Shown piece after piece: positions 8,655-38,192 of a stretch of DNA of 52,175 nt. The notes under the pieces were generated by a model. It searched no databases. It worked only from the letters and a program-made list of their open reading frames with translations, and was not told the origin of the DNA. Each line of letters begins with the position of its first letter. Position 1 is the first letter of the stretch. The stretch is from Elusimicrobiaceae bacterium (lineage in GTDB: Bacteria > Elusimicrobiota > Elusimicrobia > Elusimicrobiales > Elusimicrobiaceae). The stretch lies in assembly GCA_031549165.1 (NCBI GenBank), contig JAVBQE010000031.1, forward strand, positions 1 to 52,175, read 5' to 3'. The position numbers were made by a program, and so were the translations under genes.

Positions 8655-9856
8655 ATCCATTAAGCCAAAAAGAACTTGAAAAGTATGCCTCGGTCCTCCT
8701 CTGGGCTGTAAAAAAGGCCAAACATTCCCCCTTTAAAAAGTATGACTCCGTGCTGCTGCGCTACGACGCGCTCTCCGAGCCGCTGGCGCTGGAAGTTTAC
8801 AAACTGCTTTTAAAAGAAAAATTCAACGTCGTAGCAAGAACCGCCATGAGTGAAAACTTTGCGCGGGAATTTTACATATTGTCCGACGACAAACAACTTA
8901 AGTTTAACGCCGCAGGCGAGCGTGCTTTTAACACGGGTCTAAACGCACTTATAGCCATCCGCGCGCCGCAGGACCTTACTTATTTAAAAAATACAGACCC
9001 CTCACGCCTAGCCCTCGCCGCCAAAGCAAGAAAGCCCATACGCAAAATTTTAGACGACAGAGAGCAGCAGGGCGCCTTCGGCTGGACGCTGTGTAATTAC
9101 CCTACCCCCGCCTCCGCCGCGCATGCGCGCCTGTCTTTAAAAGAATACGCCGAGCAGATAAAAAAGGCATGCTTTTTAGACGATAAAGACCCCATAAGAA
9201 AATGGGAGGAAGTGGACAGGCATACCAGAGAAATCTGCTCATGGCTTACTAAACTTAAAATGGACACGCTGCACCTGGATAGCAAAAACTGCTCTTTAAA
9301 CCTGTCTCTGGGGGAAAGCAGAATTTTCTTGGGCGGGCGCGGATGCAATATCCCCAGCTTTGAAATTTTTACCTCGCCGGATTGCCGGCGCGCAGACGGC
9401 GTTTATTTTGCAGACATGCCCTCTTACAGAAGCGGTGTTTTGTGTAAGGACATCCGCCTGGAGTTTAAAGACGGGCGCGTAATAAAGTCCAGCGCCAAAG
9501 AAGGCGCTAACTTTGTTAAAAAAATGCTGGCCATGGACGCGGGCGCAAGCCGCCTGGGCGAGTTTTCTTTGACGGACAGGCGCTTTTCCAAAATAGACCG
9601 CTTTATGGCGGACACTTTGTTTGACGAAAACTTTGGCGGCAAACACGGCAACTCGCACATAGCGCTCGGCCAAAGCTTTGCCGACGCATACTCCGGCAAC
9701 CAAAAAACTTTTGGCGCGGCGCAAAAAAAAGCCCTCGGCTTTAATGAATCCTCCTTACACTGGGATATCATTAATACCGAGGACAAAACTGTGCACGCCA
9801 AACTTAAAAACGGCAAAAAAATTTTAATCTACGAACGCGGTATTTTTAAACTTTAG
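8651..9856 (+). CDS. Aminopeptidase, M29 (thermophilic metalloprotease) family
   Basis: NIPSFEIFTSP, LGEFSL, LFDENFGG, HIALG, SSLHWDII. Confidence 0.92.
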   Translation: MNPLSQKELEKYASVLLWAVKKAKHSPFKKYDSVLLRYDALSEPLALEVYKLLLKEKFNVVARTAMSENFAREFYILSDDKQLKFNAAGERAFNTGLNALIAIRAPQDLTYLKNTDPSRLALAAKARKPIRKILDDREQQGAFGWTLCNYPTPASAAHARLSLKEYAEQIKKACFLDDKDPIRKWEEVDRHTREICSWLTKLKMDTLHLDSKNCSLNLSLGESRIFLGGRGCNIPSFEIFTSPDCRRADGVYFADMPSYRSGVLCKDIRLEFKDGRVIKSSAKEGANFVKKMLAMDAGASRLGEFSLTDRRFSKIDRFMADTLFDENFGGKHGNSHIALGQSFADAYSGNQKTFGAAQKKALGFNESSLHWDIINTEDKTVHAKLKNGKKILIYERGIFKL

Positions 9857-10184
9857 ACTGGCGCATAAGCGCGGACGTCTCGTTAACCGCGCGCAGCAAA
9901 AACCCCAGAACAAGCTTTTTATCGTCCATTTTTTCCTTTTTTAAAAGTGCGCTTATTTCGCGCTCATTCTTCTGTATCCCGTTTTCAAAAATACGGAAAA
10001 ACTCGTCCGAACAAAGCCTTTTTTTATTTTGAATGTAACAAAGCACCGTTTCCACATTATTGCACGCGCCGTTGATACACCCGCGCTCCGCGTCGTTAAA
10101 ATAATACACGCTCTGACCCACTATCCATAGGGAGTTTAGCACGTCGTGCTTATTCCAAATCTTTTTCATTTCCAGTTCTGTCAT
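9846..10184 (-). CDS. Hypothetical protein
   Basis: 112 aa ORF translationally coupled (ATGA overlap) to 10181..10417; no recognisable motif. Confidence 0.65.
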   Translation of the reverse strand: MTELEMKKIWNKHDVLNSLWIVGQSVYYFNDAERGCINGACNNVETVLCYIQNKKRLCSDEFFRIFENGIQKNEREISALLKKEKMDDKKLVLGFLLRAVNETSALMRQSKV

Positions 10185-10417
10185 AACCCTTCCTGTAAAT
10201 TAAGCAAAACATCCGTCATATAAAAAAAATACCGCCCGCCCTCCGGCGTGTGGTAAATTTCCTTCTTTTTACACTTATCCTGCAAGACACGCAGCTTGCC
10301 GTTGGAAAAACTATTATTCCTGGCGCAAACATACTCCTTAGGCGTAAGTTTAACCCTGCCCTTCATAATGTCAACAGCCTGCGTGCGTAATATCTCTTCA
10401 CTTTTTTCTAAAGCCAT
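10181..10417 (-). CDS. Small putative DNA-binding protein (excisionase/HTH_17-like)
   Basis: RBS GAGG; LTPKEY...LQDKCKKKEI...GGRYFF pattern; divergent from an XRE repressor. Confidence 0.55.
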   Translation of the reverse strand: MALEKSEEILRTQAVDIMKGRVKLTPKEYVCARNNSFSNGKLRVLQDKCKKKEIYHTPEGGRYFFYMTDVLLNLQEGL

Positions 10418-10576
10418 ACTTCGTCCTCATTCACAAAAGTTCGTTTTTTATGCTACAATAAAAAAATATGCACAAAACGTTTAATTTATGCTTTTTTAAT
10501 GTTTATTATAGCCTCAACTTAATATAGCATAAATATACCAGTTAAATAACATTATGTCAACATATCTATTTTAATT

Positions 10577-11179
10577 ATGGCAACGGGAAGAAAAATTTAC
10601 ACTGCGAGGAAGGAATTAAACCTCACCCAAAAGCAGCTGGCAGAAAAAATAGGCCAGCCGGCTTCTGTCGTCGCGCGCTGGGAAGGCGGGCGCTTTAACC
10701 CGTCTGCCAAAAACATGGAAGATTTGGCGCGCGTTTTAAACAAGCCTTACAAATACTTTTACGAGGAAGAAAGCGTGTTCCACACGCCTAACAGTATGGC
10801 AGGCAAAACTGTAGTAAAAGACATGCTGATGCACGAAATATACGCAGAGCCGCCGTCTGCCGGGCTTATCAAAAATGCAGAGGTGCTTTTTCTAAGTTCC
10901 GCCGCGCCAAAGCCGCCATTTATAATAGAAGCAAGAGACAACTCCTACGCGCCGGACTTTGTGCTTACGGACACCCTGCACATAATCCCCGCGCACGGCA
11001 CCGCAGAACTAATCAGTGGCAGGTACTACCTGCTGCAAATAGAAAACAATTATCAAATCTTTAAAGTACAAAAAGATAAAGAAGCGCTTACGCTAAGTAT
11101 CGCCGCCAAAAAACTAAAACTCCCCGCCGCCAAAACCAAAGTAATAGGCCGGGTAGCCTTCGTCAAAAAAATATTGTAA
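10577..11179 (+). CDS. XRE-family HTH repressor with C-terminal S24 peptidase-like domain (CI/LexA-like)
   Basis: ARKELNLTQKQLAEKIG...RWEGG HTH; SAG possible cleavage site, DNSYAP (Ser), IFKV (Lys), VIGRV end. Confidence 0.85.
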   Translation: MATGRKIYTARKELNLTQKQLAEKIGQPASVVARWEGGRFNPSAKNMEDLARVLNKPYKYFYEEESVFHTPNSMAGKTVVKDMLMHEIYAEPPSAGLIKNAEVLFLSSAAPKPPFIIEARDNSYAPDFVLTDTLHIIPAHGTAELISGRYYLLQIENNYQIFKVQKDKEALTLSIAAKKLKLPAAKTKVIGRVAFVKKIL

Positions 11180-15742: not shown

Positions 15743-16798
15743 TTATTTCTGGAATAATATTTTTTCTGCTTTGTAAACATTCTGGCCTTTGACTTTAAGG
15801 TTATCCTGTGCGATAACAGGAATTTCAGCTTCAAAAGGTTTGAAGTTTTTAGAATCTTCTGCAAATTTAGCTTTCATTGCAACGCTGGCCGCTTTATCAA
15901 AGGGCACTAAATGCTTAGCGGCGATTGCAAAGTAGCTGCTGTTTTTCTGCTGCTCTTTAGGCAGCACGGCAAACTCATTATTTATCTCCTCAAAAGGAAT
16001 GATGGAATATTTAGAGGCAATCGCAGTGACAGTAATATAATCATCCATATATTTTTCCATGTAAGGATGTTTTAGAAACATCTGCTGCAAATTCCATGTA
16101 TGAACATCTGTTTCTGTAGCACCCGGATTAGCAAATAGAGAGGGCTTTTCCTCCAGCATTGCAACGCGCTCATCCATCGTAACAACCGGTTGGTTGAAAT
16201 AAGAGTATTCAACGCTGCTTGAAAATAATATCTGGGCGGCAATCACTAAAACTCCGCCAAGAGTAAAGAATAATTTATTTTTTGTTGCAGCTGTACCTCT
16301 CAGATGAAGCTTCCAGCCGCTGTCAAACCAGTCTGCCCCTATCAAAGGGGTGATTTTTGAAAACCTTGCAAAGTCTGACAGCGCCCATAAAAACGCTCCG
16401 CCAATAGGAATAGACTCAAAAATAAGGATTCCCTGCCTTTCCCCTGCATCTCTATCTTGCAAAGTAATATGGGCCCAAACGTCGCCTGCTTTATCACCTA
16501 CAGAATTAAAAAAGGCATTTCTCTTAGATTTTTTTAAATCGGAAGCGGCTTTATCTTCAGCTTCGTCTTTAGAAAAACCTTCCCCTATATAAAAGTCATA
16601 AAACATTTTATAATCTGCGGAATCCCTTTCTAATTGCAATCTAAGTTTCTGCTGGTTTTCTTTGACCGCCAGTTCCTTGGCGGTTATCTCCTCTCTACGT
16701 TTTTGCAAAACATCACGAGCCTCGCGAGTCTGTGCAAAAGCAGTATTAGAATTAACTAATAATATTGCCGCCAGTAACATTGATGTCAGTTTTTTCAT
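15743..16798 (-). CDS. Secreted/membrane hypothetical protein
   Basis: Strong RBS AAGGAGG, signal peptide, coiled coil, two hydrophobic segments; loosely similar to 36942..38192. Confidence 0.85.
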   Translation of the reverse strand: MKKLTSMLLAAILLVNSNTAFAQTREARDVLQKRREEITAKELAVKENQQKLRLQLERDSADYKMFYDFYIGEGFSKDEAEDKAASDLKKSKRNAFFNSVGDKAGDVWAHITLQDRDAGERQGILIFESIPIGGAFLWALSDFARFSKITPLIGADWFDSGWKLHLRGTAATKNKLFFTLGGVLVIAAQILFSSSVEYSYFNQPVVTMDERVAMLEEKPSLFANPGATETDVHTWNLQQMFLKHPYMEKYMDDYITVTAIASKYSIIPFEEINNEFAVLPKEQQKNSSYFAIAAKHLVPFDKAASVAMKAKFAEDSKNFKPFEAEIPVIAQDNLKVKGQNVYKAEKILFQK

Positions 16799-16855
16799 AA
16801 CTCCTCCTTAAGAAGTTCTACTCTTAATAACAGTATAGATAGATAGATAAGAGCA

Positions 16856-16918
16856 AGGGACTTTAGACCTATATCATTATGTTCTTTAGGCCCAGGCCCA
16901 TCTGGGCCTTTTGGTCCA
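16856..16918 (-). promoter_or_regulatory. Pair of 16-bp quasi-palindromic boxes upstream of a secreted orphan
   Basis: Minus strand TGGACCAAAAGGCCCA (16918-16903) and TAGGTCTAAAGTCCCT (16871-16856), then TATACT; same layout at 35318-35381. Confidence 0.6.
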
Positions 16919-16931
16919 AAAGAAAGGAGTC

Positions 16932-16962
16932 TGACACAATGGGGTCAGACCCCATTGTGTCA
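16932..16962. repeat. Perfect palindrome, 15-bp arms, 1-nt centre
   Basis: TGACACAATGGGGTC-A-GACCCCATTGTGTCA. Confidence 0.9.
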
Positions 16963-17091: not shown

Positions 17092-18801
17092 ATGAGTATT
17101 TTCTCTCGGCTTTTTAGGATGTTTTTGTTTGTGGTTTTGACGCCGCTTATTCCTTTGGCGGCGGTGGTGTTTTTTTACCAAAACTATTCTAAAACCGAAA
17201 GTTTGGAAACGCATGCTAACCTGGGCCGCATAGTCTCCTCCTCCATGGCGCAGCACATTGATAACCTCGGCTGGCGCACATCGTTCGCGCAAAATTTAGA
17301 CAAAAAAATTACTAGTACGCAGGGCACGCAGATCCTTCGTGACGCGCTTAGCGCTAACCCGGACTTCCTTATGCTTGCCGTGCTGGACGAAAAGGGCCAT
17401 CAGCTTTACTCCGCCGGGCCAAAACCCATTTTAAACGCCTTAGGCACTATAGATCTGTCTCAGGAAGACTCATTTGCCGCAGTTAAAAAAGCAGGCCGCC
17501 TGAACGTCAGCAGCTTTGACATTAAGCTCGGCCTGCCGATAGCGGAAATACTTTTGCCCCTTAAAAACGGCAAAACGCTCTTTGGCGTAGTAAGCTTCTT
17601 TAACATCTGGCTGAGGATGGAGGAGCAGAAAATAGGCGAGACTGGCCACATATATTTAGTGCACGAAAGCGGGCAGGTGTTTAACTTTGACAAGGGCGAA
17701 GCGCCCTTTGCCGCAGCCAAAATGGAACGCATTATAAAAGAAGGCTCCGTCTACATAAAAAGTTTAAAGGGCGCTGAAGGCATTACCTGGGCGGGCGCCA
17801 TTGTGCCGAGCCCGGTGGACGAAGCATACATCGCCGTTTTGCAAAACAAAAAAGAAGCCTATAAAGACGTTAACCTTGTAAGTTTAATATTGCTTTTCTT
17901 CTTCCTGGCGATAGCAACGCTGGCATACTTTGCCGCGCTGCAGTTTGCGGGCAAAATATCGGAGCCCATTGCCAACATGATAGCCGCGGCCAAACGCATC
18001 TCCGCCGGCAATTACAGCGAGCCTGTGCCCTTGGACATGGAGTGGCAGGAGTTTGACGAGCTTATTAAAGCCTTCAACCGCATGATGGAAGACATTGAAA
18101 AATACCAGGAACTAAAAGTTAAACAGCAGATTGCCGAGATAAAAGATTTTGTTTTCAACTCCGTCGCGCATGACCTGCGTGCGCCGCTGCTCGGCCTGCA
18201 GGGTTACACAGAGCTCCTTGCTAACGAAAATATAAGCGTAGAAGACAGGCGCACATATGTGGCCACCATGTCCATAGCCGTGCGGGAGCTGCTGACGCTG
18301 TTAGAAGATGTGCTTGACATTTCCAAACTGGAAGCGGGCATGCTGCACCCCAAAAAAGAAAAGTTTGACTTTAAGGAAATGCTGGACGGCGTTTTAGCGT
18401 CCATCACCCCGCTGGCAGACGCTAAAAAGCTGGACATTAAAAAAGACCTGCACACCAAAACCATGTTTTACGGAGATAAAAAGCTTATCTCGCGCGTAAT
18501 GCTAAACCTTATCACCAACGCCATTAAATTTACCGAAGCGGGCGGCGTAACAATAACATATAATGCTGATAAGGACCGCTTTTACGTCTCTGTGGCGGAC
18601 ACGGGCATCGGCATGCAGGAAATTGACAGAGACATTGTTTTTGACAAGTACCGCCAGCTGGACGAGCGTGTAAAAGGCTACGGCCTGGGCCTTACCATCA
18701 GCCGCCAGATAGTGCACGCGCACGGTGGGGAGATAGACATAAAGTCCCACCCCGGCCAGGGCACAACAATAAGTTTTTATACTAAAAGAGAGAAGAAGTA
18801 A
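17092..18801 (+). CDS. Membrane sensor histidine kinase (periplasmic Cache-like domain, HAMP, HisKA, HATPase)
   Basis: 2 TMs, HAMP (PIANM...AFNRM), VAHDLRAPL, NLITNAIKFT, DTGIG, GYGLGL. Confidence 0.95.
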   Translation: MSIFSRLFRMFLFVVLTPLIPLAAVVFFYQNYSKTESLETHANLGRIVSSSMAQHIDNLGWRTSFAQNLDKKITSTQGTQILRDALSANPDFLMLAVLDEKGHQLYSAGPKPILNALGTIDLSQEDSFAAVKKAGRLNVSSFDIKLGLPIAEILLPLKNGKTLFGVVSFFNIWLRMEEQKIGETGHIYLVHESGQVFNFDKGEAPFAAAKMERIIKEGSVYIKSLKGAEGITWAGAIVPSPVDEAYIAVLQNKKEAYKDVNLVSLILLFFFLAIATLAYFAALQFAGKISEPIANMIAAAKRISAGNYSEPVPLDMEWQEFDELIKAFNRMMEDIEKYQELKVKQQIAEIKDFVFNSVAHDLRAPLLGLQGYTELLANENISVEDRRTYVATMSIAVRELLTLLEDVLDISKLEAGMLHPKKEKFDFKEMLDGVLASITPLADAKKLDIKKDLHTKTMFYGDKKLISRVMLNLITNAIKFTEAGGVTITYNADKDRFYVSVADTGIGMQEIDRDIVFDKYRQLDERVKGYGLGLTISRQIVHAHGGEIDIKSHPGQGTTISFYTKREKK

Positions 18802-18812
18802 CGCACATTTGT

Positions 18813-18881
18813 TGTCATCCTGAGTGAAACGAAGGATCTTTCCGCACGAAATAAGATTCTTCGCTTACGCTCAGAATGACA
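18813..18881. repeat. Palindromic element, TGTCAT(C/T)CTGAG...CTCAGAATGACA subfamily
   Basis: Inverted termini plus CGAAGGATCT/AGATTCTTCG. Confidence 0.9.
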
Positions 18882-18906
18882 GCATAGAAGAAAGGGAGAA
18901 ACAATA

Positions 18907-33890: not shown

Positions 33891-35321
33891 ATGGACAAAA
33901 AATATTTTATAGTTCTTGACCAAGGAAGCTCCAGTTCCAGAGCGCTACTGGTAGACAACTCCGGCAATATTTTAGTGCAGGAGGCGCATGCGTTTTCCGC
34001 GCGCATGACGGGCCCCGGCATGGCCGAGTACGACGGCAAAGAACTTCTTGAAAGCCAGATGGCCGCGTTTAACGAGCTGCTTAAAAACATACCTAAAGAT
34101 ATTAAACCCACGTCCATAGCAGTAACATCCCAGCGCTCCACAATAGTTTTTTGGGACGCGGACACCGGCGACGTGCTGGCCCCCGTGCTCTCCTGGCAGG
34201 ACGTGCGCGCCAAAGAAGAGAGCGACGCCGTTACCATCCCCCAGGAAGAAATACATTCTATTACCGGCCTTTACAAAACGCCTGCTTTTTCCGCGCCTAA
34301 AATAGCCTGGGTGTTAAAAAAATACCCGGAGCTTAAAAAGAAAAATCTGTGCATAGCGCCCGTAGCGTCCTATATAATATGGTTTTTAACGAACAGAAAT
34401 ATTTTTGCGGTGGACCCTACACTTGCGCAGCGCACGTTGCTGTTTAATATCAAAACGCATGAGTGGGACGAAAAGCTTTTGCAGGCCTTCGGCGTGCAGC
34501 GTGCTATGCTGCCGGAAATAAAACCCACTCTCTCCCACTACGGCCATTACCAAGGGCTGCCTATCACCGTGTGCGTTGGGGACCAGCAGGCGGCCACTGC
34601 AGGCATAGGCGCCATGCGTAAAAAGGACGCGGCGCTTAACTACGGCACAGGTGCGTTTTTACTTGTAAATATCGGCGAGGAGTTTAGGGATATCCCCGGT
34701 ATTTTAACATCCTGCGCGGCCAGCATCAGCGGCAGCAAAAGTTATATTTTAGAAGGCCCGGTTAATGCGGCGGGCTCAATATTTAAGTGGCTTAATATGC
34801 TGGGGTTGTCTTTTGAACTTAATGATTTGGACGCACTTGTAAACAAGTCACACACCGAGGATTTGTTTTTCCTGCCCGCATTCGGCGGGCTGGGCGCGCC
34901 GTATTGGACAGCGGAAATAGCCACCACCATCACAGGCCTTACGCCGTCTACAAAGAAGGAAGACATTTTAGCTGCGTCGGTCAAAAGCGTGGGCTATTTA
35001 ATAGCGGATATTTATTTTTATCTTAAGAAAAACGGCGTAAAAATAGACAATATCAAAGCCTCCGGCGGCATGGCCAAAAGTGAGTGCGTGCTAAAATTCC
35101 AGGCGGACATTTTGCAGCAAACAATAACGCAGGCGCTCCACCCCGAGGCCACGGCCTTAGGCGCGGCGTACCTAGCCGCCGAAGCCGCCTTTGCAGACAC
35201 CCATTCCTGGGATAAAACCCAAAGCATAAAAGTATTTGACCCAAATATTTCCCCCGAAGAAGCACAGAAGAAATATCTAAAGTGGCGCAAATTCTTTGAC
35301 TGGAATAAAACCTTAAAATGA
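33891..35321 (+). CDS. glpK: FGGY-family kinase, probably glycerol kinase
   Basis: LDQGSSSSRA, SQRST, WQD.R, FSAPK, GDQQAA, YGTGAF, PAFGGLGAPYW, EATALGAA; near plsY/gpsA. Confidence 0.8.
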   Translation: MDKKYFIVLDQGSSSSRALLVDNSGNILVQEAHAFSARMTGPGMAEYDGKELLESQMAAFNELLKNIPKDIKPTSIAVTSQRSTIVFWDADTGDVLAPVLSWQDVRAKEESDAVTIPQEEIHSITGLYKTPAFSAPKIAWVLKKYPELKKKNLCIAPVASYIIWFLTNRNIFAVDPTLAQRTLLFNIKTHEWDEKLLQAFGVQRAMLPEIKPTLSHYGHYQGLPITVCVGDQQAATAGIGAMRKKDAALNYGTGAFLLVNIGEEFRDIPGILTSCAASISGSKSYILEGPVNAAGSIFKWLNMLGLSFELNDLDALVNKSHTEDLFFLPAFGGLGAPYWTAEIATTITGLTPSTKKEDILAASVKSVGYLIADIYFYLKKNGVKIDNIKASGGMAKSECVLKFQADILQQTITQALHPEATALGAAYLAAEAAFADTHSWDKTQSIKVFDPNISPEEAQKKYLKWRKFFDWNKTLK

Positions 35322-35381
35322 CCAAAAGGCCTATGCAAAACATAGGCCTTTTATCTGTTATTCTTTAGGTCTTAAGGCCCT
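35318..35381 (+). promoter_or_regulatory. Pair of 16-bp quasi-palindromic boxes upstream of the poly-C gene; the first also forms a terminator-like hairpin
   Basis: ATGACCAAAAGGCCTA (35318-35333), TAGGTCTTAAGGCCCT (35366-35381); hairpin AAAAGGCCTATG-n5-CATAGGCCTTTT. Confidence 0.6.
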
Positions 35382-35415
35382 GGTTTTGCATTGCAAGTTC
35401 TAATAATATAAGAGT

Positions 35416-36937
35416 ATGAAAGCTAAACTCACACTCTTAATAAGCCTCTTCTTATTCTGCACCTCCGCTAGGAGCGCGGGAAATTTTGGTTTTGTGCCCC
35501 CCCCCCCCCCCCACTAAGTTAGAAGTTCTAAAACAATTTGACAGTTTTAAAATACAGATTAAAGGAACAAGCACCATAACCTCCTGGGCAGAGCAAGTAC
35601 AGACGGGGAATATCAATATTCCCACCCTTATTGCCATACTTGAAGATACTCATTATGTAAACTCCGACAATGTCTACACCGAGGAGTCCTGCCTGTCAGA
35701 CTACGAGGGCCCGCTGGAATGCGAACTGGGACTGCTTACTACAATACTTCCGCACTTAACTTATACTTCTGCCGAAGGGCAGATGTTAACAGGTTTCTTT
35801 TTGAGAAAACTTACGCATCCTTATAATAGAAGAGATAAAAACTATTCTCTTTATTACCGCTACTCATTAATTGCATCCTCCATAATACCCAGCAACACCG
35901 CCGGGCGGGACATTTTAGACGGCCTTATACGCGTAGTAAAAGGCGAGTTTGGCAGCAAGCCGGAAACCCACGTGTGGAGTGCGCGCACATTGGCAAATGT
36001 GCCCTATTTCAGCCCCGCGCAACAGCGCAAAGTTATAAAAGAACTCTCCTCCATTATCCAGAATTACAGCTACACGCTTAAAGATACTTATGACGACAAA
36101 AATGCCCTCGGCTACTTTACTAAAAACGAACATATAGCCCAAAAAGTATTCGCCGCTAAAGTTAATTTTTTTGCCAAAAATGCTGAGCACAGCATAATGC
36201 GTTCTATGCTTACCAGCGCGGTCTTTGTAGAAGAGGGCCGCGCGTTTTATTTACAGAACGACCTGCCCGGCATGGACGGCAAAAACTTTGCTTCCACCGA
36301 CAACGGCAACCGCCACAATATTTCCTTCAACCTTATAAAAACGCTTTTCAAAGCCTACGTCTTAAGCGGACATCCGGAGGAGATGAATAACTTCATCATC
36401 AAATACGGCAGGCTCAATACTTCTAAAACAGGCTTTGACAATTACCTCCTATTCGCCATGTATGGCATGGACGAAGCATTCAGCTATAACGACTCCAAAC
36501 ACATAGACGGCTGGCTGGACCAGTATAATATTTTCCTTTCGCAAATAGCCTCAAACATCTGGGCCACAGCGCCGGCGGCTATAGTGTTAACCACCATACA
36601 GGGCGGCGCGGAAGTAAGCGCGGAGTGGATAGGCATAACAAAACTTTTTAAATACGGCGGCAAATTCTTTGGCGCGGTAGGTAAAGCGGGCATGGGCGCG
36701 TTCCTGCGTTTCATGCCAAAGCAGTATTTTACTACCGGAGCAGTACTTGCCCTCGGTAAAGCCGCGTCCAAAAAACTAATAATGACCGCGCCTAAAAAAG
36801 CATTAAACAAAGCGGTGCGTATTTTAATGCTAGCCTCGCCTCTTGCATTAACCGGAGACGAAAATAACAGCATAACACAAACAGAAGCAAGAAACATAAC
36901 TATGAACAAAGAAGAAGTAAAAAAACTAATGGAGTAA
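35416..36937 (+). pseudogene. Secreted hypothetical protein frameshifted at a C16 tract (phase-OFF allele or sequencing error)
   Basis: ATG 35416 gives the signal peptide MKAKLTLLISLFLFCTSARSA...FVPPPPPH*; removing one C joins it to the long ORF (..PPPPPTKLEVLK..). Confidence 0.8.
35497..35512 (+). repeat. Homopolymeric C16 tract
   Basis: Direct count of 16 C; the longest G/C run I saw in the window. Confidence 0.95.
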
Positions 36938-36941
36938 GAAT

Positions 36942-38192
36942 ATGAAAAAAATAATAGCAAGCGCAGTAATAGCAGCAATGCTGCTTACAAGCAATACCAC
37001 CCTGCTCGCCGCCACCGTGACAGAGCAGCCCAGAACGTTGGCCGAATACAGCCAGCGCTTTGTGGAAGAAACAAAAAATTATAATCTGCAAAAGAAAGAT
37101 GCGGTTACCCTTTCCGTAGTATTTGCCGCGATAGCCACAGCTGCAATGGTAAGCTATGCTGCAAAAAAAGAATGGCAGCAAAGCAGGCGAGCTTACAACG
37201 GCAATTCTGCTGGTGCTGTTGCCGAATCAAAGTATATAAATGGCCTTGCCTCACCGCAGGAATTTAAATTTAATCAGAACATATCTGGCGGCAATATGTC
37301 GTTTATAACAGACGGGCAGGAGGTTTCCCAGAATATCAAGCCCATCACTTCCGGCCAAGCTCCGTCTAACATAATTAATATTGAAGAAAAAACTGCATCT
37401 ACAAAAGCTGCTGAGTTTAAAAACATTATGAGTGATGAGGCGACAAATATTACGAAAAATGAGTTAAAAAGTTTTACGCAATTTGAGATGAGTGCTATAT
37501 CTAAGCGTATAGATCACCTGGCAATTGGTCTTGGCTCCTCTGTTAATCCTGAAGCTTATGCCATGCTAAAATTAGATCTTTTTAATTTAGAAAAGCTTAA
37601 AGCGCGCACCCTTTCCTCGGAACACAAAAAAGTGATACAAAACTTTATAGACATATATCTTACGGATATACAATATTTTCTAAAACTGGATTCTGATAAC
37701 CTTGCCTCATATGTTTATACAAAGCAAAATTATTTTAACCATGATAGGTTTGGCCAAAGCAAAGAGTTTATTTCAAAAGAAAGCCATACTATTTTAAAGA
37801 ATACTTTATCCAAGAGATTTTGGATATTTTTAGCTGTATTGGGCACAGCTTCGCTTGTTATGAGCAATGAAACGCAGGCGAAAGTTCAGGCAATTGCTTT
37901 GCAGCCTTCGCTTGCCTTTAACATGAACCCTGAAGATTCAGAACACAGAAAAATCTTTAATGCTATAGACAGTCTTAAGGATCAGCGTCTTAGAGAATCT
38001 TTGGTACAGGCTTTTGAGTACGCGCATGAGATTCACACTCTGCCTTTTGAGCAGAGAGAGGCCAAAGTAAACCAAATTGAAAAAGATTATATTAAGGAAA
38101 GCAAAGAACTAAATTTTGATCAGAACAGACTTAAAGGTATCAAAGACAATGCAAATAAAAAATACACAATAATGAATTCTCAGGCTGAATAG
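36942..38192 (+). CDS. Secreted/membrane hypothetical protein
   Basis: RBS GGAG, signal peptide, two hydrophobic segments, AT-rich core. Confidence 0.85.
   Translation: MKKIIASAVIAAMLLTSNTTLLAATVTEQPRTLAEYSQRFVEETKNYNLQKKDAVTLSVVFAAIATAAMVSYAAKKEWQQSRRAYNGNSAGAVAESKYINGLASPQEFKFNQNISGGNMSFITDGQEVSQNIKPITSGQAPSNIINIEEKTASTKAAEFKNIMSDEATNITKNELKSFTQFEMSAISKRIDHLAIGLGSSVNPEAYAMLKLDLFNLEKLKARTLSSEHKKVIQNFIDIYLTDIQYFLKLDSDNLASYVYTKQNYFNHDRFGQSKEFISKESHTILKNTLSKRFWIFLAVLGTASLVMSNETQAKVQAIALQPSLAFNMNPEDSEHRKIFNAIDSLKDQRLRESLVQAFEYAHEIHTLPFEQREAKVNQIEKDYIKESKELNFDQNRLKGIKDNANKKYTIMNSQAE

Follow-up and report, generated by a model that had tools for sequence, protein, structure and literature searches.

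A promoter element that is real and class-wide, and apparently unpublished, lies ahead of genes for predicted secreted proteins in Elusimicrobia. The usual unit consists of two 16-bp quasi-palindromes (WRGGYC-N4-GRCCYW) that are 24 bp apart, and we have hardly any doubt that it is a regulatory site. On balance, the boxes are probably bound by a NarL-family response regulator encoded in a Tad pilus locus; as a class II activator, this protein would switch on the predicted secreted-protein regulon.

Two promoters in the window and their parts

The window is the whole stretch of DNA that was analyzed (52,175 nucleotides, contig C101 of genome G000, which has 1.66 Mb on 151 contigs and is 86% complete). 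It holds only two of the about 45 promoters that carry the element in this genome. Scores are from the position weight matrix (PWM) described below.

16903..16918, minus strand: distal box of locus 1, 24 bp from the middle site (PWM 15.0 bits)
16879..16894, minus strand: middle site of locus 1, which lies 23 bp upstream of its proximal box and has an intact left half-site and a degenerate right one
16856..16871, minus strand: proximal box of locus 1 (PWM 21.2 bits), abutting a TTG-type -35 (16851-16856)
16838..16849, minus strand: (TATC)3 repeat inside the -35/-10 spacer of locus 1
16832..16837, minus strand: -10-like TATACT of locus 1, 18 nt after the proximal box (usual spacing 22)
15743..16798, minus strand: target 1, a 351-aa protein with a signal peptide (heuristic); Shine-Dalgarno (SD) sequence at 16801-16809
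17092..18801, plus strand: divergent dCache-HAMP-HisKA histidine kinase beside locus 1 (context gene)
35318..35333, plus strand: distal box of locus 2, only the right half-site good; includes the glpK stop codon
35324..35352, plus strand: hairpin of locus 2, in which the distal right half-site pairs with the middle left half-site; T-rich run after it
35343..35358, plus strand: middle site of locus 2 with an intact left half-site, located 23 bp ahead of its proximal box
35366..35381, plus strand: proximal box of locus 2 (PWM 25.4 bits), centered at about -42.5 from the predicted start
35404..35409, plus strand: -10 TAATAT of locus 2 at the class-wide 22-nt spacing, followed after 6 nt by the ATG at 35416
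35416..36937, plus strand: target 2, predicted leaderless, with a signal-peptide-coding start (35416-35517) and a 474-codon frame downstream
35497..35512, plus strand: C16 tract in target 2, where the reading frame is broken
36942..38192, plus strand: second gene of locus 2 (4-nt gap), a 416-aa orphan with a signal-peptide-like start

The original prediction had named four boxes at these two loci. All are present, and each of the four 16-mers occurs only once in G000. The distances of 47 and 48 bp between distal and proximal boxes are correct as measured (24+23 bp at locus 1, 25+23 bp at locus 2) but do not represent the unit: the usual period is 24 bp, and a middle half-site had been overlooked. 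Both window loci thus have a three-site arrangement (24+23), and a left half-site in the middle position, 23 bp ahead of the proximal box, recurs in 8 of 45 promoters of G000. The -10-like elements that had been noted (TATACT 18 nt and TAATAAT 19 nt past the proximal boxes) exist; at locus 2, however, the -10 is TAATAT at 22 nt, and the one noted is too close.

The distal box of locus 2 is weak (PWM below 11 bits). Because the hairpin at this place (about -19 kcal/mol) lies behind glpK and is followed by T residues, it probably does double duty as glpK terminator and as part of the box. With the (TATC)3 repeat in the spacer, TATACT of locus 1 comes 4 nt closer to the box than is usual for the class. 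This repeat is a possible repeat-length promoter switch. No repeat-length variants of 16838-16849 were seen in metagenome contigs, which come from one study, and Logan contigs of run X1, possibly the source sample, have no differences at either window locus. The best-matching run is an invertebrate gut metagenome; RNA runs cover only small pieces of the window. In G019, a homolog of the adjacent kinase (46% identity) has a three-site 24+23 element next to it, facing away, with a -10 at 22 nt and an ATG at 34 nt. The site of locus 1 is therefore shared with G019, and its short -10 spacing may be derived.

Neither window target matches a Pfam or NCBIfam family, target 1 having seven distant relatives. 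The structure models have mean pLDDT values of 52.6 and 58.3, that of target 1 being all-helical and of low confidence. Foldseek returned nothing at E <=0.001 with these models, and the best VIA-align match (Z 7.4) involves short helices. The homologs of target 2 are whole (482-519 aa), and this gene also stands behind the element in G003 and in a gene cluster of G020. In the window, its two parts are in different frames, with the poly-C tract (C16) between them, and metagenome contigs break at this tract (35497-35512). The frame break reflects either phase variation or an assembly error.

Several further features of the window were noticed. Just upstream of locus 1 (16932-16962) is a palindromic GGGGTCAGACCCC-type repeat, two related cores of which have 5 and 11 genome copies; a RAYT-like gene is found elsewhere in G000 (C4:15102-15851). 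Metagenome contigs are very deep over a short intergenic repeat at 18810-18885. The region 9846-11179 resembles a remnant phage switch, with a divergent CI-like HTH_3 gene (200 aa, no S24 match) and two small ORFs with an AT-rich intergenic region. The HTH_3 gene has a family-wide paralog at C49:3607-4215. There is no Rfam match within the window.

Enrichment, position and range of the element

A PWM that started from the proximal boxes settled on WRGGYC-YWWR-GRCCYW. At a threshold of at least 15 bits it gives 74 strand-hits in G000, corresponding to 62 distinct boxes; three genomes generated by an order-4 Markov model give 3, 2 and 4 strand-hits. The boxes are mostly intergenic: only 7 of the 62 are inside called genes (at least 100 aa), though such genes cover 88% of the genome. 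When two boxes lie within 120 bp of each other (23 pairs), they are 24 bp apart in 19 cases and 47 bp apart in two. Of 124 oriented rows in G000, 29 have a TAnnnT hexamer that starts 22 nt past the box (background 2.2%). The offsets to the first ATG peak at 34 nt (11 rows) and also at 58 nt, because the same start is then measured from the distal box. With a cut-off of 18 bits, a composite model of two boxes and the -10 has 62 matches in G000 versus 0 when the genome is reversed. Both models were trained on G000 itself, so that the relatives are the independent test; the 45-46 oriented promoters were curated by eye from the PWM and composite lists. The enrichment and positional bias that had been set as a test of the original prediction are thus found, the boxes being fixed relative to the -10 and the start.

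The final base of the proximal box often begins a TTG, 17 nt from the -10. Given this overlap, the box abuts the -35, and its center would lie near -42.5 if transcription starts 34 nt past the box. There are two or more tandem boxes per promoter. By sequence, and counted from the predicted start, the layout is that of class II promoters, which have a dyad site near -41.5/-42.5 at a fixed distance from the -10. Such sites are known for CRP and FNR (-41.5), LuxR (near -42.5) and lambda PRM. In class II promoters generally, too, a dyad site adjoins a weak -35 at a set distance; the sequence of the site differs.

The scan of relatives, which the original prediction had proposed along with that of the genome, found the two-box pattern in 28 of 41 order relatives, and the reversed-pattern control gave 0 in all of them. 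Among 201 phylum genomes searched, a short pattern of the element is present in 95, in some at control level. The single box is found in 59 of 61 family genomes and has 7-52 copies in all 14 genomes of families f6-f9, while outside the class there are 0-2 copies per genome, which is the control level. Some genomes that had gone undetected with the strict box (G070, G207, G024, G036 and, weakly, G027) are recovered by a pattern of half-site pair plus -10. In-class genomes in which the element was not found are those of f4, f5, f10 and f11 as well as G008, G014, G031, G034 and G002.

At least 116 stretches in GTDB species genomes match, and among the matches listed, 80 of 80 are from Elusimicrobia or unnamed bacteria. 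Together with the gene content of G000, the named records suggest that G000 belongs to Elusimicrobia as well. A lone viral match was rejected as a tandem repeat. With this spurious locus included, TAnnnT is found at 21-23 nt in 103 of 117 GTDB loci; at the position 34 nt past the box, 87 of 108 aligned rows of the GTDB set have a purine. The matches listed include records of two cultured species, Elusimicrobium simillimum and E. posterum. The literature searched on Elusimicrobia did not describe the motif or the regulon; key genome papers were outside this search, and a published mention is possible. In the accessible part of a preprint on giant genes, the phylum receives no more than a brief mention (10.1101/2023.11.21.568195).

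Target genes and their context

The proposal that the motif lies ahead of secreted-protein genes agrees with the signal-peptide counts. A signal peptide is called for 31 of 34 targets of at least 45 aa in G000, versus 155 of 713 first-in-operon genes, the call being our own heuristic, the choice of starts favoring ORFs with a signal peptide and the target set omitting promoters with a short, broken or no ORF. At the GTDB loci, the heuristic calls one for 91 of 101 promoter-side ORFs versus 30 of 81 other-side ORFs. The regulon is real, and its scope had been underestimated: it comprises about 45 promoters in G000 and extends across the class.

No family is assigned to 27 of the 34 targets of G000. 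The other seven have Pfam families (M10 and M12B-like peptidases, VanY, 5'-nucleotidase, ankyrin, Sel1 and the cytoplasmic Ham1). For targets of the relatives, a Pfam match was obtained in 7 of 21, 7 of 19 and 20 of 50 ORFs scanned, the 50 being hand-chosen (45 of the 101 promoter-side and 5 other-side ORFs, with short pieces and obvious repeats skipped). Peptidases among them belong to M14, M20, M28, S8, C1, C11 and trypsin families. Other targets are a lytic transglycosylase, an amidase, a ribonuclease, a phosphatase, MBL-fold and repeat proteins, together with one beta-barrel and one receiver protein. A D,D-carboxypeptidase is also among the nameable targets. To judge from their family assignments, the nameable targets are mainly peptidases, wall hydrolases and nucleases; a digestive reading of the regulon rests on a minority of its targets.

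At four loci (L033, L038, L041 and L044), a 2'-dG-II riboswitch directly follows the two-box promoter, and in three of them the next gene codes for a secreted MBL-fold protein. This combination would couple transcriptional activation with nucleoside feedback on a likely nuclease.

Some target genes appear broken: in C38:4767-4856, C127:78-191 and near position 14114 of C90, the frame stops soon past the signal peptide or there is no clear start. This may be decay or may be due to low-coverage errors. Directly downstream of regulon targets, and in the same direction, pilE-like genes were seen on C95 (two loci), C123 and C65; some pilins may be co-transcribed with regulon targets.

G000 has 31 poly-C/G tracts of 10-17 nt that are at most 100 nt past an ATG and ahead of a long open frame (e.g., on C4, C6, C11, C60, C86 and C145, and in the window at 35497-35512). 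About 26 of the 31 fall where a pilE-like gene encodes its leader; our caller finds about 57 such genes in G000. The tracts are in frame in 11 of 31 cases; 13-mers are mostly in frame and 14-mers are all out of frame. The pattern suggests that a large pilin repertoire is phase-variable through strand slippage, or else that the assembly has homopolymer errors.

The candidate regulator and other readings

Of the two GerE-domain proteins in G000, the candidate regulator is the one encoded at G000:C57:8503-9180, a NarL-family response regulator. Its gene follows those for a dCache-HAMP-HisKA kinase and a receiver-HisKA hybrid, amid TadB/C-like and TadE genes. An ortholog (61-89% identity) is found in 38 of 40 order relatives, the two misses being genomes that are 74% and 83% complete. 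In 50 further genomes, an ortholog at 57% identity or more occurs in exactly the 16 of 16 that are motif-positive. The eight motif-negative in-class genomes among the 50 have none, or only homologs with 42-49%, and outside the class 3 of 26 genomes have homologs with 41-53%. Any gene inherited with the clade would share this profile, and kin genomes are not independent.

The regulator is kept in five genomes in which the motif is not above control (G002, G008, G014, G031 and G034). Three of the five have an intact recognition helix; the two others, G008 and G014, carry Asn in place of the first contact lysine. We rejected loss of the sensor kinase as the cause of motif absence, since 40 of 41 genomes have a match to the upstream kinase. 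Homologs from motif-negative genomes (G089, G167, G043 and G049) share the K-T-x-K-N helix, which is therefore not diagnostic. The helix of DegU is similar to that of the candidate, and DegU binds an AT-rich consensus, which also speaks against the candidate.

The search for regulators in G000 comprised nine family searches in a genome that is 86% complete, so another regulator may be missed. The second NarL-type gene (on C7) was rejected, having a different helix and several motif-positive genomes with only one match. A CRP/HcpR-like protein (C90; 4 of 30 genomes) and a MarR protein (C72; 3 of 30 genomes) were also rejected, and there is no LysR match in G000. A second close NarL-type copy outside the Tad locus is seen in L173-L181 and L154 (families f6 and f8). 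Several of these second copies precede genes with secreted-protein-like beginnings.

The closest known systems were compared on the basis of the accessible parts of the respective papers. DevR/DosR promoters of Mycobacterium tuberculosis have two to four tandem palindromic boxes (e.g., at -42.5 and -63.5), the proximal one 33-34 nt from the start (PMC3177182). The Elusimicrobia element resembles them in tandem arrangement, proximal center and distance to the start, in GC-rich half-sites around an A/T center, in pairs of a strong and a weak site, and in some promoters being divergent. The candidate retains the three base-contacting residues of DevR, its K186, K189 and N190 aligning with K179, K182 and N183 (PMC4082495). 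Differences are the period (24 or 24+23 bp, while for DevR the boxes must be in phase, at a distance of 21 bp; PMC3177182), so that the boxes are not in phase in the sense of DevR, the half-site (RGGYC versus GGGACT) and the kinases (dCache-HAMP-HisKA and receiver-HisKA versus haem-GAF sensors). The targets also differ (secreted orphans and hydrolases versus hypoxia and dormancy genes, in a different phylum), and no dormancy or USP targets were found among those scanned.

OsdR of Streptomyces coelicolor, with the consensus AGGGCCGATCGGCCCT (PMC5069765), provides nearly identical half-sites in a 16-bp 6-4-6 palindrome (AGGGCC-N4-GGCCCT). As far as the accessible part of that report goes, the two systems also share a NarL-family (candidate) regulator, and OsdR has a few secreted protease targets. 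The central 4 bp are, however, A/T-rich in Elusimicrobia and GC-containing in OsdR sites, the OsdR regulon is made up of genes for stress and dormancy that surround the OsdR locus, and the accessible part shows no fixed 24-bp pair. DegS-DegU of Bacillus subtilis is a functional analog, with a response regulator that activates secreted-enzyme genes (such as aprE and sacB). According to the part of the source at hand, DegU binds the AT-rich consensus GNCATTTA (PMC2245950), which is degenerate and occurs in varied arrangements, without a rigid palindrome pair at -42.5. Mechanistically, the element belongs to a familiar type, a DevR/OsdR-like class II promoter. It is placed outside the DevR dormancy regulon because period, sensor and targets differ.

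The same class II regulon might have another binder, such as a clade-specific DNA-binding protein that lacks a Pfam model or is absent from the incomplete assembly, while the NarL-type protein serves only the Tad locus. We regard this as possible, if rather unlikely. It would accommodate the period of 24 bp versus the 21 bp reported for DevR, the five regulator-positive genomes without the motif and the 86% completeness of G000, and also that no conserved site was found beside the regulator's own operon, where autoregulation might have left one. It is at odds with the fact that every motif-positive genome tested has an ortholog of the NarL candidate, and with the match of box sequence and position to DevR and OsdR sites as given in the accessible sections. 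In addition, no further conserved box was found from -140 to about -35 in 43 G000 or 107 GTDB promoters, and no regulator-like family recurs in 172 neighboring genes.

Two other readings would dispense with an activator. Operators of a cooperative CI/XRE-like repressor, blocking the -35 region until induction, could look similar: the lambda right operator has periods of 24 and 23 bp, reminiscent of the three-site 24+23 arrays, which are combined with leaderless starts, and G000 codes for two CI-like HTH_3 proteins. This is nonetheless highly improbable. The rigid 22-nt spacing to the -10 with a weak -35 is what an activator requires; the CI-like gene of C49 is found in 16 of 16 genomes of its own family but in 0 of 34 other in-class genomes searched, being limited to f1 and one outside genome; S24 is absent from G000; and there is no box in the intergenic region of the window's CI-like gene. 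The element might instead be a REP-like repeat or a terminator hairpin and not a protein site at all, which now seems scarcely credible. The 40-bp unit is indeed an inverted repeat, both window loci can fold (about -19 to -21 kcal/mol), G000 contains further palindromic repeats and a RAYT-like gene, and self-complementarity of the outer bases of the spacers slightly exceeds that after shuffling (1.02 versus 0.81 +/- 0.07). The spacers are, however, distinct in 111 of 116 cases, the arms do not co-vary in pairing (0.52 versus 0.50 +/- 0.016 when shuffled), a T-rich tail follows at only 21 of 180 ends, and the distance to the -10 and the secreted genes is fixed and one-sided. Given the diverse spacers, the absence of arm co-variation and the rarity of T-tails, the explanation is largely refuted and fits only the distal hairpin of locus 2. 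The original prediction had itself allowed that the distal boxes might be terminator stems; this holds in part for that box (hairpin at 35324-35352) and not elsewhere.

Proposed function and its meaning for Elusimicrobia

We thus favor activation by the NarL-type regulator of the Tad locus. The adjacent dCache sensor kinase and the receiver-kinase hybrid would phosphorylate the regulator, dimers of which would occupy the distal and proximal boxes cooperatively. At a weak -35, the proximal dimer near -42.5 would recruit a sigma-70-type polymerase, and many of the resulting transcripts would be leaderless. The output would be orphan exported proteins together with peptidases, wall hydrolases and nucleases, which may break down outside macromolecules or cell material.

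It is tempting to speculate that the regulon serves the lysis of other cells, under control of an ancient contact- or starvation-triggered phosphorelay of the Tad locus that is shared by Elusimicrobia from groundwater to animal guts, even though we consider this unlikely. If true, the operator would mark a set of exported proteins for predation or scavenging, with nucleases, proteases and wall hydrolases as well as orphan effectors that evolve fast, and hundreds of orphan proteins would gain a common function class. Elusimicrobia are not called predatory in the literature that was searched. The element provides a regulon-level handle on a poorly known class, as a short pattern flags co-regulated exported proteins, most of them family-less. 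The lytic and digestive targets bear on how small Elusimicrobia feed. Since the element is present in cultured species, the regulator, its trigger and the proposed lifestyle are directly testable.
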